Assembly (NCBI GenBank): GCA_018714685.1
Contig: DVNC01000050.1
Coordinates: forward strand, 1-63,720
Source: Candidatus Scatocola faecipullorum
Lineage (GTDB): Bacteria > Pseudomonadota > Alphaproteobacteria > RF32 > CAG-239
DNA length: 63,720 nt
Reading direction: 5' to 3'
The position numbers and the translations under genes are program-made. The first letter of the stretch is position 1; each line of letters starts with the position of its first letter. A model generated the notes under the pieces. The model was not told the DNA's origin, ran no database searches, and saw only the letters and a list, made by a program, of their open reading frames with translations. This document shows positions 12,009 to 17,535 of the stretch, one piece after another.

Positions 12009-12527
12009 TCAGTCTTTGTCATGAACGTCATGAAGCTTCTTCTCATGGCGGTCACGGCGCATGTCATGACGGGCTTTCCTGGCTTCATGGCGCTTTTTCA
12101 TTTCTTCATGATGCCGGGCTTTGATGTCTTTAAGCTTTTCTTTCTGCTCCGGAGTCAGAATTTTTTCAAACTCCAGCATATTGTCTTCACGCAGCTTATC
12201 CATCTTCTCACGAATGTCTTTCATCTCCTCAAACAGCGGTTTAAGCTTTTCACGGCCTTCTTTGCGGATTTTCTCGGCCTGCTCCTGCTGCTCTTTTGTC
12301 AGTCCCAAATCGTCCGCCAGTTTTTTAGACATCTTTTTCTCCATCTTTTCCATTTTCTTCTCCATCGCTTTATCTGCACCCGGCGGCGGAGGAGGAGGCA
12401 GCATTTCATCTCCGTGATGCGGCGGCGGAGGCGGCAGCGGCATATCATCGGCAGCCTGAACATTCAGGGCGCCCAAAGCCATAACGCTGAAACAAACGGC
12501 AGTTAATAAAACTTTCTTCATTATCAT
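12009..12527 (-). CDS. Spy/CpxP-family periplasmic chaperone
   Basis: Signal peptide, Pro/His-rich N-terminus, two LTxxQ motifs (LGLTKEQ, ILTPEQ). Confidence 0.88.
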   Translation of the reverse strand: MIMKKVLLTAVCFSVMALGALNVQAADDMPLPPPPPHHGDEMLPPPPPPGADKAMEKKMEKMEKKMSKKLADDLGLTKEQQEQAEKIRKEGREKLKPLFEEMKDIREKMDKLREDNMLEFEKILTPEQKEKLKDIKARHHEEMKKRHEARKARHDMRRDRHEKKLHDVHDKD

Positions 12528-13018
12528 TCTCCTTTTAACGGTTGTAACACTTCGCTCAAAAGTTTCCGAGCATTAAAGAGTCTGGATTTGATGGTTCCGA
12601 CCGGATCGCCGGTCTTTTTGGCAATCTGCTCATAACTCATCTCTTCAAACTCAAACAGAATAATCACCTGGCGCAGCTTTTTCGGCAGAGTGTCCACGGC
12701 CTTCAGAATAATTTTCTGGCGCTCTCTGGCATCAAACCGCTCTTCGATTTTTCCGCCGACGGCCACTTTTTCCAAAATCGATTCGTCACCTGCTTTGCGC
12801 AGCTCGGCCCGGTGCTGACTGGATTTCAGATAATCGCGGCAGACATTGGCAGCCAAAGCGCTTATCCACTGAACAAACTTCCCTTCTTCATGATAGCGGT
12901 CCAGATTCCGCCAGGTCTTGATATAAACCTCTTGTTCGATGTCTTCATTATACGAGCCGGTCAATTTTTTGATAATTGCCTTAATCCGGCCCTGATGCGC
13001 TGCAATAATTTCTTTCAT
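12524..13018 (-). CDS. ECF RNA polymerase sigma factor
   Basis: EDIEQEVYIK.W, F..WI..LA.N..RDY (region 2); MSYEQIA...G.PVGTIKSRLFNAR (region 4). Confidence 0.95.
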   Translation of the reverse strand: MKEIIAAHQGRIKAIIKKLTGSYNEDIEQEVYIKTWRNLDRYHEEGKFVQWISALAANVCRDYLKSSQHRAELRKAGDESILEKVAVGGKIEERFDARERQKIILKAVDTLPKKLRQVIILFEFEEMSYEQIAKKTGDPVGTIKSRLFNARKLLSEVLQPLKGE

Positions 13019-13279
13019 TTAGCCGACCATCAACAAGCCGTATTCGTCAACCGGCAAGCCCATATCTTCAATAACCGAACCTTCTTCTATCTGCGCCACC
13101 TGATTTTCAAACTCCATATCCGGCAGCAGGGTATAGGTGTTGTATTTCTGCGGCCACAAGCTGCTCATCATCACCACGCACACCAGCATTCCGAGTGTTG
13201 CTTTAATCCGGTTGTTGCGGCGCTTTCGGGCAAAATACAGCGGCTTGGCCTCCTGTAACAAACGAGAAATGTCATCCAT
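13019..13279 (-). CDS. Small single-pass membrane protein, putative anti-sigma factor
   Basis: 86 aa, basic patch then TM helix; stop abuts sigma start; AAGGAG SD. Confidence 0.65.
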   Translation of the reverse strand: MDDISRLLQEAKPLYFARKRRNNRIKATLGMLVCVVMMSSLWPQKYNTYTLLPDMEFENQVAQIEEGSVIEDMGLPVDEYGLLMVG

Positions 13280-13300
13280 GTTTCAAACTCCTTACCCTTA

Positions 13301-13330
13301 TTAGAACGAGACTGTTGTCATTAAAGTTCA
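13301..13330 (-). promoter_or_regulatory. Candidate ECF-sigma promoter 1
   Basis: Minus strand TGAAC-N17-CGTTCTAA upstream of anti-sigma/sigma/Spy operon. Confidence 0.55.
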
Positions 13331-13347
13331 TTTTATTTGATATTTAA

Positions 13348-13695
13348 TTAATATCCGGTCGTCACACACTGCTGAACCGTTACACCGTTGTTAACGGTAG
13401 TTGTGCAGTTGGAAGTCGCAACCGGCTGCGGCACAACGGCGGCTTGCACCGGCACATAGGTCTGAACCGTCTGCTGCGGCGTCAGCAAATTGGCTAATGC
13501 CGCCATCCCCACAATCGTCCCCGCCACGGCCAGAGCCGTCCCGCTGCGGTGATGCTTGTGCCTGACGGCTCCCGGCCGATGATACGAATAAACAGGCCCC
13601 GGACGGAAATGCGCCCCGCCGTGGCCGGGAAAAGCCTGAACCGTCCCCGTGCTTAACATCGTTACCGCAGCCAACAGCATCAAAAATTTTTTCAT
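13348..13695 (-). CDS. Secreted hypothetical protein
   Basis: MKKFLMLLAAVTMLSTGTVQA signal peptide, His-rich segment, internal hydrophobic helix, C-terminal Cys pair; start 13695. Confidence 0.7.
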   Translation of the reverse strand: MKKFLMLLAAVTMLSTGTVQAFPGHGGAHFRPGPVYSYHRPGAVRHKHHRSGTALAVAGTIVGMAALANLLTPQQTVQTYVPVQAAVVPQPVATSNCTTTVNNGVTVQQCVTTGY

Positions 13696-13731
13696 AAATA
13701 AAACTCCCTGTTTTTTTAAGTCTGACACTTC

Positions 13732-13761
13732 TTAAAACGAACGTTTTTTCTTTTTTGTTCA
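13732..13761 (-). promoter_or_regulatory. Candidate ECF-sigma promoter 2
   Basis: Minus strand TGAAC-N17-CGTTTTAA, same spacing as 13301-13330. Confidence 0.55.
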
Positions 13762-13859
13762 AAATATTTTTTAATCCCGCGTTTTTCCTTCCCGTCCCTC
13801 ACTCGTTGTCCGCCCTCCGCCATTGCTCTGATAACCATATAATTCATGTCCTTTCTCCG

Positions 13860-13971
13860 TGTCATTACCCGGCTTGACTGGATAACCAGTGCTCCCTCTT
13901 CTGTCATTACCCGGCTTGACCGGATAACCAGTGCTCCCTCCCCTGTCATTACCCGGCTTGACCGGGTAATC
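13860..13971 (+). repeat. Three REP-like palindromes, 42-bp period
   Basis: TGTCATTACCCGGCTTGAC(C/T)GG(A/G)TAA at 13860, 13902, 13944; third copy is the perfect palindrome ATTACCCGG-CTTGA-CCGGGTAAT. Confidence 0.85.
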
Positions 13972-14092
13972 TGAATTTATACGCCTTTCCGGTTTTATCC
14001 GAACATTCCGCTCAAACCGGAACATAATAAAAAAACAGCCGGATATATCAATCAAACTTAAAATCATCTCATGGCCTTACATAAATTTCCCC

Positions 14093-14121
14093 TTGCAATT
14101 TAGCCGGCTCTCATTTACAGT
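14093..14121 (+). promoter_or_regulatory. Candidate sigma70 promoter for structured RNA unit 1
   Basis: TTGCAA-N17-TACAGT. Confidence 0.5.
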
Positions 14122-14127
14122 AGAACC

Positions 14128-14340
14128 AGCTTTTAGGCAAGGTAAGTCCGGTTTCGTCCGAACCCCAAACCTGATTAACCGTGAGAGCGGGCGGGAACCT
14201 AGTAATTCTTTCATCAGTTACAAGACCCTCTCATGTGAGGGAGCCTCCAATATAAGGCGGCTTCCGCACGAATAAGGAGGGCTGTCCGACTGGTACAGTT
14301 ACTAGCTCCCTCACACCTTTCAGGTCTGAGGGTTTTGTTT
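14128..14340 (+). ncRNA. Unassigned structured RNA unit 1, ends in intrinsic terminator
   Basis: CTAGTAA(14199-205)/TTACTAG(14299-305); TGTGAGGGAGC(14234-44)/GCTCCCTCACA(14305-15); CCCTCA..TGAGGG+TTTTGTTT terminator (14308-14340). Confidence 0.5.
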
Positions 14341-14405
14341 TGATGGCAGCTCGAAACAAATAAAACCTGATTAAGCTGCTGAATTTTATAAACACGGTAT
14401 TGGCT

Positions 14406-14435
14406 TTGTAAAATTCTTAAGTTATAACATATAAT
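14406..14435 (+). promoter_or_regulatory. Candidate sigma70 promoter for unit 2/HTH operon
   Basis: TTGTAA-N18-TATAAT (perfect -10 at 14430-14435). Confidence 0.5.
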
Positions 14436-14441
14436 AATTCA

Positions 14442-14654
14442 GTGTGGACGGTTTGAAACCCCGACACAGATAAATATGTTACATACCCAACGCAGCAGGC
14501 GTTAATCTGCACTCGTACCCTTTTTAAGGGGAGGAGTATTGCGAATACCCGTACCGTGCCGGCTTCGTCCGGCACGGATACGGTAATAAGCATAACTGTA
14601 TATGGGTATGTACAGGGTTTCAGCTCCTCCCGCCTTTTGAAAGGATAGGTTGTT
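14442..14654 (+). ncRNA. Unassigned structured RNA unit 2 / 5' leader of HTH operon
   Basis: TGAAACCC(14454-61)/GGGTTTCA(14615-22); TACATACCCA(14480-89)/TGGGTATGTA(14603-12); GGGAGGAG(14529-36)/CTCCTCCC(14624-31); long CCGTGCCGG/CCGGCACGG hairpin. Confidence 0.5.
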
Positions 14655-14900
14655 ATGCAAGCTGATTTGTCCCATTTTATCATTGAAGATAAGCAAAATC
14701 TCGGCTGGAGATTTCACTGGCTGCGTGCCGAACAGCAGGAGCCGATTGATATCTGCGCCCAAAAACTCAATGTTTCCGTTGACGTGATTGATAAGATTGA
14801 AAGCGGACAATTTGACAGTCCTCAAGTCAATCTGGACATCTTAATCCGTTATCTCGCACTTTACGGCGAAAAGTTCCGCCTCAGCCTCGGAGACGACTAA
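14655..14900 (+). CDS. XRE-family helix-turn-helix protein
   Basis: LGWRFHWLRAEQ...ICAQKLNVSVDVIDKIESG pattern; SD AGGATAGG. Confidence 0.8.
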   Translation: MQADLSHFIIEDKQNLGWRFHWLRAEQQEPIDICAQKLNVSVDVIDKIESGQFDSPQVNLDILIRYLALYGEKFRLSLGDD

Positions 14901-15190
14901 TGGACGACAGATATATTTTTCACTGGAAAGAGCTCCCTTTTGACGGTGCTTATTACCTGGCGGAAGAACTTTATTCCGCCCGGCGGCAGAAAAAACTCAG
15001 CCTGGAGGAAGTCAGCCGGGCCACAGGCATTCCGCCGGTTCGGATAGACGCTCAGGAAGTTATGTCGGCGGACATAGATTTCCATATCATCGCGCGATTA
15101 TTGGATTTTTATCGGATTAAACTGGGTTTGAGCAAAGGTTTTTTTCCCGGCTTGCCGCAAAACTATCAAAAAAAATATTTCCGCAATTAA
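14900..15190 (+). CDS. XRE-family helix-turn-helix protein
   Basis: LAEELYSARRQKKLSLEEVSRATGIP; TAATG stop/start coupling with the upstream HTH gene. Confidence 0.8.
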   Translation: MDDRYIFHWKELPFDGAYYLAEELYSARRQKKLSLEEVSRATGIPPVRIDAQEVMSADIDFHIIARLLDFYRIKLGLSKGFFPGLPQNYQKKYFRN

Positions 15191-15273
15191 GGCAGGCGCT
15201 CCGAACACTGCCGTTTCTTCCCGGCCGGAACCGCACCGTCTCCCGGCCGGGTCGGAAAATCCTTTTATCAATT

Positions 15274-17535
15274 CTATAAACAGCGGTAAAGATTAGCTTT
15301 TCGACAGTTGGCAACATCTTCAAAGCGGCGGACTTTATTCCAGACTTGCGCAGCCTTGGCTGCTTCATATGATTTATAAACAAAATCAACCCGATAGTAA
15401 TCCGCCTTAATTTCTGCCGCCTCCGCCGCAAAACACAACGGCTGTTCGGCAAACAGCATCGTCTGGCAGTCCTTCGACAAAGCCTGATATTTCTGTCCGT
15501 CTTTCTCCAATTTCAGCCATTTTTCACCGCGCGGACAATCTTTGCAGGCATTACTGCGAATACAGGCGGCACTGGTAAACAATGCCGCATCCTGATAAAC
15601 CACCATTGTCACCGGTAAAGGCGCTTGCGCGGCAATCAGGCTGAGGTTGTCAAGCTGGTCTTCCACCGAAAGCGTCACCCGTCCGACATTCATCTCTTTA
15701 GCCATCTGCATGGCTTGGGTATTCAGCATATATAAAGGCGCGTCAAAGCTTAAATCAATTCCGTTTTTCGGCAGCACCGACAATCCCCAGTAATTGCCTA
15801 TTTCCCATTTTTTATATCCCTGCGCCAGCAAAGTCTCTATCAGCGGCTTAAACTTGTCAACCCGTCGGCAGACCGTCGGCAGCGCCAGACGGAGTTTGTT
15901 TTTAGGCAGCTTTTTCAACTCGTTGGCATCACTTTGTTCATTCAGCAGATAAATAATTTCATCGGCTTCGTCCGGCGCAATGGCGGCAATTTTAGCCAAA
16001 CTGTCGGTTTTTATAACCCATTTGGCGGTTTGAATCCGGTGCGGAGCGTCCGTCTCCGGCAGATTTCCCTTCTTGTTTTCAACACTTATTTGCGCATAAA
16101 GCTGCCGCCGCAGCTCATTGAACAAAGACACCGGAACAAACAAACCTTCCGGATTGCGCACCTCAAACCGTCCCGGCTCCACCGCGGCATCACCGCTTTT
16201 GGCAAAAGCTTTGCGGGCGGCTTCAACCGTTTTCTCAGGATGTTCTGCCGCAGCAAAATCACCTGTTATCCGGCACTCAACATCGCCGCTGCGAGCAACA
16301 ATTTCCCCGCCGGCAATCTCGACGACAATGTCAACCGCCGCTTTCTGCCGAAATTCACCCGGCTTGGGCTTGCCATAATCATAAGCGCCCTTAACTTCGG
16401 AGGCCGAGGCCAGATAAATGTTCCACCCTTTTTCCAAACGCGGCGTCTGCGGCGGCAAATCCATGGTAATTTCTTCCCCTGCCGGCACTTCAAACACGCT
16501 TTGCCCTCTCAGACGCAGCCGCTGGACCGAAAAACCGAACGGCTTTTCCATGCCGGGAATTTCAATTTGTATCCCGTCATAGCGCGCTACCTTATGTTTG
16601 CTGTGAAAAGTCAGACGCCCTTTGCCTGCCTGCTCCACTTTGCCGATCAGCAGTCCCCGATGCCCGACAAATTCACGTTCAATCACATTTTTATCTTTGC
16701 CTTTGAAATGAAATTTGCACCACGGCCGCGAAAAAATCTGTTTGATATGTTCGGCCCGGTTTTCATCAGCTCCTTTGCCGTCCAATATCCGGCGGTAATA
16801 ATCGGTAACCGCGGCCACATAAAGTGCCGTCTTTTTACGCCCCTCAATCTTCAGCGACATTACCGGCATTTTCAGAACATCTTCCTGCAAAGCCATGTCT
16901 TTCATCGAAAAATAATGCTTTTCCCCGGCTTCGCCGGTAAAATTCGCCCGGCAGGGATATAAACATTTGCCGCGGTTGGCGCTGCGTCCGGTTTCCACCG
17001 ACGAAAACAGACAGAGACCGCTGTAAGAATAGCAAAGTGCCCCGTGAATAAAAGCCTCGGTCTCCAACCCCGGAACAGCGGCAATTTCTTTAATTTCTCC
17101 CTGCGTCAGTTCACGGGCTACCACCACCCGGCTGAACCCTTCCTTTTGCAGCGCCAGCGCCCCTTCTTTATTATGAACCGCCATCTGCGTACTGGCATGC
17201 ATTTCCAGTTCCGGATAACTCTCCCGAATAATCCGCGCCACGCCCAAGTCCTGCAAAATAACCGCATCCACTTTGCAGCGCGAACAAATATCCAGACTTT
17301 TCAGCAAATCGGAAAGTTCTTTTTCCTGCACCAGCGTATTGACCGCCGCATACACCTTGCGTCCCAGGTAATGCGCATAACCGACAAATTCATTAAGATT
17401 TTCTTCGCTGAAATTGGTTGCCGTTGCCCGCGCCGAAAATTGCTGCAGCCCCAGATAAACGGCGTCTGCCCCGTAAAACAGCGCCGCATACCCGGCTTCA
17501 ATATCGCCCGCCGGCGCCAGAAGTTCAGTTTTCAT
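15274..17535 (-). CDS. Peptidase U32 family, long RlhA-like form (probable Fe-S RNA hydroxylase)
   Basis: ELLAPAG, GADAVYLG, HASTQM, FIHGALCYSYSGLC..S....RSANRGKC..PCR, LKIEGR. Confidence 0.9.
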   Translation of the reverse strand: MKTELLAPAGDIEAGYAALFYGADAVYLGLQQFSARATATNFSEENLNEFVGYAHYLGRKVYAAVNTLVQEKELSDLLKSLDICSRCKVDAVILQDLGVARIIRESYPELEMHASTQMAVHNKEGALALQKEGFSRVVVARELTQGEIKEIAAVPGLETEAFIHGALCYSYSGLCLFSSVETGRSANRGKCLYPCRANFTGEAGEKHYFSMKDMALQEDVLKMPVMSLKIEGRKKTALYVAAVTDYYRRILDGKGADENRAEHIKQIFSRPWCKFHFKGKDKNVIEREFVGHRGLLIGKVEQAGKGRLTFHSKHKVARYDGIQIEIPGMEKPFGFSVQRLRLRGQSVFEVPAGEEITMDLPPQTPRLEKGWNIYLASASEVKGAYDYGKPKPGEFRQKAAVDIVVEIAGGEIVARSGDVECRITGDFAAAEHPEKTVEAARKAFAKSGDAAVEPGRFEVRNPEGLFVPVSLFNELRRQLYAQISVENKKGNLPETDAPHRIQTAKWVIKTDSLAKIAAIAPDEADEIIYLLNEQSDANELKKLPKNKLRLALPTVCRRVDKFKPLIETLLAQGYKKWEIGNYWGLSVLPKNGIDLSFDAPLYMLNTQAMQMAKEMNVGRVTLSVEDQLDNLSLIAAQAPLPVTMVVYQDAALFTSAACIRSNACKDCPRGEKWLKLEKDGQKYQALSKDCQTMLFAEQPLCFAAEAAEIKADYYRVDFVYKSYEAAKAAQVWNKVRRFEDVANCRKANLYRCL

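Follow-up and report, generated by a model that had tools for sequence, protein, structure and literature searches.

Two structured RNA units lie in tandem on the plus strand of a 63,720-nucleotide (nt) stretch of the Candidatus Scatocola faecipullorum genome (contig DVNC01000050.1, referred to throughout as the window). The second unit directly precedes a pair of small helix-turn-helix (HTH) genes, HTH1 and HTH2; the first precedes the second and has no open reading frame (ORF) of its own. In our view both units are probably copies of a multi-copy, cis-acting leader RNA that switches between two folds, with termination of transcription, in unit 1, and translation, in unit 2, responding to the switch. 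The family to which they belong is common in uncultured gut Alphaproteobacteria, where most genera of one bacterial family have it, in genomes of ~1.2-1.9 megabases; it sits before small transcription factors and surface lipoproteins, both of which it is taken to control, and is in no RNA database.

We propose a mechanism in which each unit has two alternative structures (Table 1). State B is a three-way junction closed by helix P1, with a P2 arm carrying an AAUA / GAAUAAG internal loop and a short P3 hairpin. State A consists of two long-range helices, one between the P3 loop (b') and a box b1 further upstream, the other between the P3/P1 joint (a') and an upstream box a1; here a small hairpin would hold the 5' strand of P1. 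In unit 1, State A would leave the 3' strand of P1 free to become the 5' arm of an intrinsic terminator, and an RNA of ~213 nt would be released; in State B the same arm would be bound in P1 and transcription would read through into unit 2 and both genes, which encode regulators of the XRE type. P1 would act as the antiterminator, and the pairing of a1/b1, together with the hairpin on the P1 5' strand, as an anti-antiterminator. Unit 2 would employ the same sensor followed by the remnant of a terminator, which covers the Shine-Dalgarno (SD) sequence of HTH1, so that its output is probably translational. The conserved P2 loop and junction may bind a common ligand or factor that favours State B.

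Covariation and competition between the two folds

The evidence for two folds comes from homologous loci, which were gathered from the contigs of HTH1-family proteins and by scanning metagenomes with the unit-1 pattern. The ~57 metagenomic and genomic loci obtained fall into about seven lineages plus mosaics, and both units are present in all of them where the sequence reaches. MAFFT mis-registers the variable helices a and b, and hence these were assessed by permuting cognate against non-cognate strands and not by counting columns. In unit 1, every lineage has the cognate duplex in its own version, for example CTAGTAATT/AGTTACTAG against TTCGAAAAC/GTTTTCGAA for helix a, and ATCAGTT/GACTGGT against GCATCAACA/TGTTGATGC for helix b. 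In unit 2, helix a occurs in three versions (TTGAAACCC/GGGTTTCAG, TCGAAAACC/GGTTTTCGG and CTAAAAAC/GTTTTTAG) and helix b in six among seven lineages (e.g., TACATACCCA/TGGGTATGTA against TTCCTATCAAGC/GCTTGATAGGAA). The observed pairing was reached by few permutations, both in unit 1 (4/720 for helix a, 2/720 for helix b and 12/720 for P1) and in unit 2 (48/5040 for helix a and 2/5040 for helix b); for helices a and b, the permutations that equalled the observed total were only swaps within identical classes. Boxes that can pair with the P3 loop and with the joint of P3 and P1 are found in the lineages of the window and also in 36 distinct family members, where at fixed offsets none of 20000 permutations reached the observed pairing for either helix.

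State B is maintained in the same manner. For unit 2, RNAalifold predicts the three-way junction (P1, P2 with its distal hairpin, and P3) and the SD hairpin, with compensatory changes at 15 junction pairs; the consensus for P2 includes such pairs, and P3 covaries through the forms CTGTA/TACAG, CTGTT/AACAG, CTGCT/AGCAG and CTGCTT/AAGCAG. In unit 1 the P2 stem varies in concert (CCTCC/GGAGG, CCTCT/AGAGG, GTCTC/GGGAC), P1 is replaced by GGGTG/CACCC in one mosaic (L034), and most lineages support a local P3 hairpin. The terminator hairpin, with a folding energy of -13.7 kcal/mol on its own, persists in the syntenic homologue L024 with both arms altered, and across the family six of its seven pairs show compensatory changes; a simple consensus scan missed it, presumably through the internal C.C mismatch. 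When the junction and terminator stems were considered together in 37 family copies, 92.5% of cells were paired and 19 of 32 pairs were compensatory, a level attained by none of 500 shuffles, and slid controls gave 37-52% paired. The hairpin that would hold the P1 5' strand in unit 1 is possible in all lineages, with one-sided changes only when judged by eye. Immediately beyond the terminator, the U-tract can pair with an A-rich stretch and this hairpin covaries too (GTTTTGA/TCGAAAC here, GTTTCGG/CCGAAAC in L024 and GTTTTAT/ATAAAAC in a paralogue), which suggests that read-through transcripts exist. G.U pairs are frequent in the sense orientation across the family, which indicates an RNA of the plus strand, and both units fold more stably than dinucleotide shuffles (z = -3.85 in each case).

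The two states compete for the same nucleotides. The b' strand comprises the P3 loop and part of the P3 3' strand, and in L116, a further copy from the source genome, b' takes up all 6 nt of the P3 loop. These nucleotides belong to P3 as well as to helix b, and both elements covary. No linker separates the a' strand from the 3' strand of P1. States A and B are mutually exclusive because P1 and helices a and b cross with a linker of zero length, which we have reasoned from the geometry of pseudoknots and not computed. At the decision point of unit 1 the energies are -65.3 kcal/mol with P1 and -66.0 kcal/mol with helices a and b; for unit 2 the corresponding values are -76.0 and -80.8 kcal/mol.

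Much of this structure was anticipated by a first-pass annotation of the same DNA. The pairings it named (P1, the unit-1 terminator, the SD hairpin, 14480-14489 with 14603-14612, and CTGTA/TACAG) are all present where it had placed them, and its suggestion that TGGGTATGTA pairs either at long range or within a local hairpin is borne out by compensatory changes that keep both. It had also cast the P1 3' strand as the 5' arm of the terminator and P1 itself as an antiterminator, roles that the overlap of the two sequences and the compensatory changes support at the level of prediction. In each unit a sensor-like fold does lead straight into an expression platform by way of the P1 3' strand, in unit 2 through the outer two pairs only, and the two competing states are nearly isoenergetic in unit 1.

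A family of leader RNAs

Two covariance models were used to define the family: R1, built from the core of unit 2, and R2, built from 37 copies excluding both units of the window. Both units are family members, because R2 finds each of them independently of the window's own sequences, unit 1 at 14233-14341 (54.0 bits, E value 1.8e-12) and unit 2 at 14526-14657 (39.6 bits, E value 1.7e-8). R1 matches at least 84 of 151 genomes from the same bacterial family, spread over 18 of its 23 genera with up to 12 copies in a genome; there are three further copies in the window's own genome. A second full module, with both units, lies on another contig of the source genome and a third in the genome of one congener. 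The typical copy has a junction of ~100 nt with P1 GGGCGGAG/CUCCGCC, a P2 loop CUAAUAU..GAAUAA, P3 ACUGU..ACAGU and a joint UUUGAG, and this is followed by a terminator overlapping P1, then an SD sequence and a gene. The AAUA / GAAUAAG internal loop of P2 is strongly conserved throughout. The genes behind these copies encode XRE proteins of ~80-113 amino acids or, in about a third of the copies examined, lipoproteins.

Unit 1 has the terminator, with a 5' arm that overlaps the 3' strand of P1; unit 2 instead has a hairpin of the SD type, as do the leaders L125 and L130. In the alignment of the family model this hairpin occupies the position of the terminator of other members, the U-tract having gone and the 3' arm having become the SD sequence. 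Its stem is retained in homologues at 4-7 base pairs and its loops vary. L125 and L130, in which the SD sequence likewise lies inside a hairpin, precede a gene for a 197-amino-acid lipoprotein. They belong to a sub-type with P1 GGGCGGAUGU/ACAUCCGCCC found before lipoprotein or small membrane-protein genes, of which there are further examples at G000:C21 16800-16907 and G000:C48 17321-17435. Tandem arrays of two or three units are seen in other genomes of the family (G084:C7 26458-27042; G100:C9 47434-47744), and since their spacing of ~210-245 nt is too small for an intervening HTH gene, arrays consisting only of leaders, like units 1 and 2, must recur. In typical family members the A-rich partner of the terminator U-tract sits just before the SD sequence.

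Recombination among the homologous modules is evident from mosaics: L078 combines a unit 1 of the window's type with a different type of unit 2, and in L034 only the central variable part of unit 1 has been swapped. These two and L088, all of them human gut metagenome contigs, have flanks near-identical to the window, with the variable centre of unit 1, the whole of unit 2, or both replaced. L088 has the b1 box of one type with the b' of another, and either helix b is broken in this copy or the contig is an assembly chimera.

Relationships with known RNAs

The family is uncatalogued in Rfam. Scans of the window region 12500-16500 and of five homologous loci returned only sub-threshold matches to sRNA-Xcc1 (RF02221) and chance matches, and nothing in the five loci reached threshold. 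The sRNA-Xcc1 model matches the window over its full length at 14235-14322 (28 bits, E value 0.069, against a gathering threshold of 53 bits), and two family members score 34.5 and 28.3 bits, also sub-threshold. sRNA-Xcc1 was first described in an integron cassette of Xanthomonas campestris. Reports place it ahead of symE in integron cassettes (bioRxiv 10.1101/2025.06.18.660453) and, in APSE phages, ahead of an ORF6N gene (bioRxiv 10.1101/2020.03.17.996009). The likeness, though distant, extends to the three-way junction, the G-rich/C-rich P1, the P2 arm with an AAUA / GAAUAA loop, the P3 hairpin, the U-rich joint (UUUGAG) before the P1 3' strand and the RCC-UUU that comes next; both RNAs are found in the sense orientation just upstream of a small gene. 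Unlike sRNA-Xcc1, the gut family has a strong terminator overlapping P1, lacks a second pair of boxes (a2/b2) at the ribosome-binding site, and is chromosomal and multi-copy, preceding XRE and lipoprotein genes.

True Xcc1 members in Bartonella provide a further connection. R2 matches them weakly (19.9 and 19.7 bits, E value ~0.005), and both R1 and R2 weakly match an element ahead of a beta-solenoid gene on the B. grahamii plasmid pBGR3. An 18-mer from this element recurs in 11 Bartonella loci, nine of which were examined for boxes along with pBGR3. Four of the copies were scanned with the Rfam Xcc1 model; two reached its threshold (61.3 and 55.6 bits) and two fell just below (49.5 and 47 bits). 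These RNAs have a1/b1 boxes upstream that are complementary to the P3 loop and joint, as in the gut family, and in addition an a2/b2 pair that overlaps the ribosome-binding site; b1, b' and b2 vary in concert from copy to copy (e.g., CCATTAG, TAACTAG, CCAACAG, CCTAAAG, CCATAAG). The loci, in genomes and on pBGR3, include L143, L146, L152, L155, L157, L159 and L112 (25835-26100, minus strand), and the downstream genes encode beta-solenoid proteins and, in one case, an antirepressor-like protein. The same layout of a1/b1 and a2/b2 boxes is found in the C4 immunity RNA of phages P1 and P7 (PMC5320573), and the analogy hints at what the Xcc1 family, hitherto unexplained, may do.

Comparison of the gut family with C4 itself (RF01695) reveals a common plan: a fold of ~77-100 nt with three stems, variable elements a' and b' complementary to boxes a1 and b1 that lie nearer the 5' end of the same RNA, and a conserved scaffold on which the variable elements differ between copies (PMC5320573). 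However, a' here lies in the junction strand and not in a hairpin loop, and the predicted output is an intrinsic terminator or SD hairpin and not antisense occlusion. The design is therefore that of an Xcc1/C4-like scaffold wired as a terminator/antiterminator leader. In terminator/antiterminator riboswitches, such as the purine riboswitch, P1 closes a three-way junction and its 3' strand is shared with the terminator or SD helix. Our units resemble these in having a conserved junction core with variable helices and a P1 3' strand shared with the expression platform; unlike them, they have an additional conserved anti-antiterminator layer (a1/b1), a ligand that is hypothetical, and many copies in each genome that precede paralogous regulators and not metabolic genes.

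The Brt RNAs of Bartonella, with their downstream Trp regulators of the XRE type, are similarly multi-copy, strongly folded and ~200 nt long, come from Alphaproteobacteria, and place a terminator-like stem directly ahead of a poorly transcribed small XRE gene; they were proposed to act as a riboswitch-like attenuator plus trans-acting RNA, and were reported as confined to the genus Bartonella (Tu et al. 2016, PMC5387305). Neither R1 nor R2 had a significant match upstream of the XRE gene of pBGR3, where the location of Brt was assumed and no Brt sequence was compared directly. Brt/Trp is best regarded as an analogue by arrangement only. The Brt/Trp circuit regulates the adhesin BadA. The family described here links sRNA-Xcc1, known from integrons and phages, with the phage C4 immunity RNAs and, by arrangement, with this Bartonella circuit.

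Taking these relationships further, we tentatively suggest, as a possibility that we would not press, that a new riboswitch-like class has arisen from mobile antisense RNAs of the Xcc1/C4 type, with the junction and its AAUA / GAAUAAG loop serving as its sensor. One cellular signal would then gate in parallel an entire set of paralogous XRE regulators and of lipoproteins in these small-genome gut Alphaproteobacteria, through three layers (the a1/b1 anti-antiterminator, the P1 antiterminator and the terminator), and the window would present two such sensors stacked, the one transcriptional and the other translational.

Alternative explanations

In seeking other explanations for the conserved helices, we need to consider that the units might be antisense RNA genes of the C4/Xcc1 type. 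Termination or RNase P-type processing would set the junction free as a stable small RNA, its a' and b' would pair with target boxes on other transcripts, a1/b1 would be an internal decoy in the precursor, and unit 1 would be a trans-acting RNA. The full-length matches to sRNA-Xcc1, sub-threshold as they are (28 bits for the window; 34.5 and 28.3 bits for two family members), count in its favour, and it would accommodate R2's weak matches to Bartonella members whose a2/b2 boxes covary with b', the promoter and terminator that unit 1 has of its own, and the ORF-less tandem arrays in other genomes. We nevertheless think it unlikely. Downstream a2/b2 boxes are absent from 36 gut-family members, in which cognate strands have no advantage over non-cognate ones (7022 and 15625 of 20000 permutations), and none were seen by eye at the HTH1 ribosome-binding site of the window. 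The first-pass annotation had raised the possibility that unit 1 acts in trans on unit 2, and this is not supported: a targeted search for complements of the unit-1 a'/b' in unit 2 found no consistent site in six lineages, and unit-1 and unit-2 types reassort (L078, L034). An unconstrained prediction of duplexes between the units was uninformative, and the Rfam C4 model had no match in 12500-16500 at E values up to 10. The comparison with P4 CI and P1 C4 immunity that had been drawn at the same time is thus half right, in that the a1/b1 boxes are family-wide and speak for kinship of design; the trans mechanism finds no support here.

It is also conceivable, and in our estimation quite improbable, that the leader is bound by a protein and not by a small molecule, either the XRE proteins themselves, through autoregulation, or a housekeeping RNA-binding factor, with unit 1 as a titrating decoy. 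Most copies are tightly linked to one small HTH protein family, the P2 loop is kept in all copies whatever gene follows, and orphan units without ORFs exist, all of which could be explained in this way. However, roughly one in three of the copies examined is followed by a gene for a lipoprotein and not for an HTH protein, and proteins of the XRE fold are DNA binders, with nothing found here that points to RNA binding. That the inverted repeats are DNA-level features, as HTH operators or recombination sites, we regard as scarcely credible; palindromic elements near both promoters and recombinants between lineages might be cited for it, but the helices tolerate G.U and not the equivalent C.A pairs, and the structure is strand-specific; the helices are also up to 130 nt apart, nested as in RNA, and bracketed by a promoter and a terminator.

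The two-state leader that we favour is itself subject to several reservations. P1 is invariant among copies of unit 2, its compensatory changes (7/9 pairs) being evident family-wide, and L024 has no local P3 hairpin in its unit 1. Because the family alignment (A9) was adjusted to the structure of the model, its pair counts are inflated. Termination near 14340 and both transcription starts are predictions from sequence, and the ligand or factor that would operate the switch is postulated. Having its own promoter and no ORF behind it, unit 1 would fit a free-standing small RNA equally well. Finally, P1 and the SD hairpin of unit 2 overlap by two outer base pairs only. Since these CC/GG pairs are all that P1 shares with the hairpin, the coupling in unit 2 is weaker than in unit 1, and on paper it is weak; translational control by unit 2 is plausible and less secure than the control ascribed to unit 1, and two-tier control, transcriptional and then translational, is likewise plausible. 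A two-state RNA with both folds fixed by covariation is cleanly testable.

Organisation of the locus

The plus-strand module lies between two minus-strand genes, one for a secreted protein (ending at 13728) and the other for a U32 peptidase (15274-17535). Its order is promoter, unit 1 (~14128-14341), promoter, unit 2 (~14442-14654), HTH1 and HTH2.

Table 1. Coordinates of RNA elements and genes in the module
Feature	Position	Strand	Sequence and remarks
Unit-1 promoter	14093-14098; 14116-14121	+	TTGCAA, 17-nt spacer, TACAGT; 8/12 consensus matches, under scan threshold
Unit-1 5' domain	14128-14198	+	two hairpins plus conserved GCGGGA (14191-14196)
Unit-1 5'-domain hairpins	~14145-14163; 14179-14190	+	GTCCGG..CCGAAC; CCG-TGAGAG-CGG; from homologue alignments by eye
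Unit-1 box a1	14199-14207	+	CTAGTAATT; 5' strand of State A long-range helix a
Unit-1 box b1	14213-14219	+	ATCAGTT; 5' strand of State A long-range helix b
Unit-1 anti-P1 hairpin	14226-14230 / 14237-14241	+	CCCTC/GAGGG; element 14226-14244; overlaps P1 5' strand
Unit-1 P1 (Y/Y')	14234-14244 / 14305-14315	+	TGTGAGGGAGC/GCTCCCTCACA; 11/11 complementary
Unit-1 P2 domain	14245-14281	+	stem CTCC/GGAG; internal loop AAUAUAAGG / CACGAAUAAGG; variable distal hairpin
Unit-1 P3 region	14282-14305	+	b' GACTGGT (14288-14294); a' AGTTACTAG (14297-14305)
Unit-1 terminator	14308-14341	+	CCCTCACACCT (14308-14318), loop TTC (14319-14321), AGGTCTGAGGG (14322-14332), U-tract TTTTGTTTT (14333-14341); overlaps P1 3' strand
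U-tract/A-rich hairpin	14337-14357	+	GTTTTGA / TCGAAAC; terminator U-tract with downstream A-rich stretch
Unit-2 promoter	14406-14435	+	TTGTAA-18-TATAAT; 10/12 consensus matches
Unit-2 box a1	14453-14461	+	TTGAAACCC; pairs with a' GGGTTTCAG
Unit-2 helix b	14480-14489 / 14603-14612	+	b1 TACATACCCA / b' TGGGTATGTA; 10/10 complementary
Unit-2 linker hairpin	14518-14530	+	CCCTT/AAGGG; overlaps P1 5' strand
Unit-2 P1	14529-14537 / 14623-14631	+	GGGAGGAGT/GCTCCTCCC; closes junction
Unit-2 P2 domain	14538-14595	+	stem, AAUACCCG / UAAUAAGC internal loop, long distal hairpin (14544-14583)
Unit-2 P3	14596-14600 / 14611-14615	+	CTGTA/TACAG; b' TGGGTATGTA in loop; local alternative to helix b
Unit-2 a'	14615-14623	+	GGGTTTCAG; after P3, before P1 3' strand
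SD-sequestering hairpin	14633-14636 / 14641-14644	+	CCTT/AAGG, loop TTGA; outer CC 14630-14631 / GG 14648-14649
SD and start	14641-14645; 14655	+	AAGGA; ATG 10 nt after SD; SD covered by SD hairpin
HTH1	14655-14900	+	81 amino acids, XRE-type
HTH2	14900-15190	+	96 amino acids, XRE-type

The promoter described for unit 2 in the first-pass annotation is exactly as reported, and that of unit 1 is present with its hexamers 2 nt away from the position implied. Transcription would start near 14128 and near 14442, respectively. Among homologues of unit 1 the TTGCAA is kept and the -10 element has the form TAnnnT wherever the sequence reaches, which in the 5'-truncated L027 it does not; in a paralogous type of unit 2 a promoter TTGGCA-17-TATAAA lies at the equivalent place. 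Both stems in the 5' domain of unit 1 show compensatory changes by eye (CCGG/CCGG to CTGG/CCAG, and CCG/CGG to CTG/CAG).

HTH1 and HTH2 overlap by stop and start as TAATG. Their Pfam HTH matches are weak and PADLOC returned nothing useful for the HTH proteins. Pairwise BLASTP among HTH1, HTH2 and one HTH protein of the family gave no match, but comparison of profiles did link them: against a profile of leader-associated HTH proteins, hhalign assigned HTH1 a probability of 94.8% and HTH2 one of 97.4%. The HTH1 family is tiny, with 22 proteins among 5.8 billion searched. The locus looks like two leader-plus-regulator modules that may have been rearranged into the order leader-leader-gene-gene.

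Two kinds of repeat were noted in the vicinity. An exact 12-nt direct repeat, AAACCTGATTAA, occurs at 14167-14178, inside unit 1, and at 14363-14374, past the terminator, and its CCTGA core is complementary to TCAGG, which is present both in the 5' end and in the terminator loop; the repeat was dropped as a functional candidate, the second copy being missing in the syntenic homologue L024. Upstream, at 13860-13985, are three tandem 42-nt repeats (TGTCATTACCCGGCTTGACYGGATAACCAGTGCTCCCTC..), single copies of which are scattered in this and related genomes; they were rejected as part of the module and represent a palindromic repeat dispersed genome-wide.

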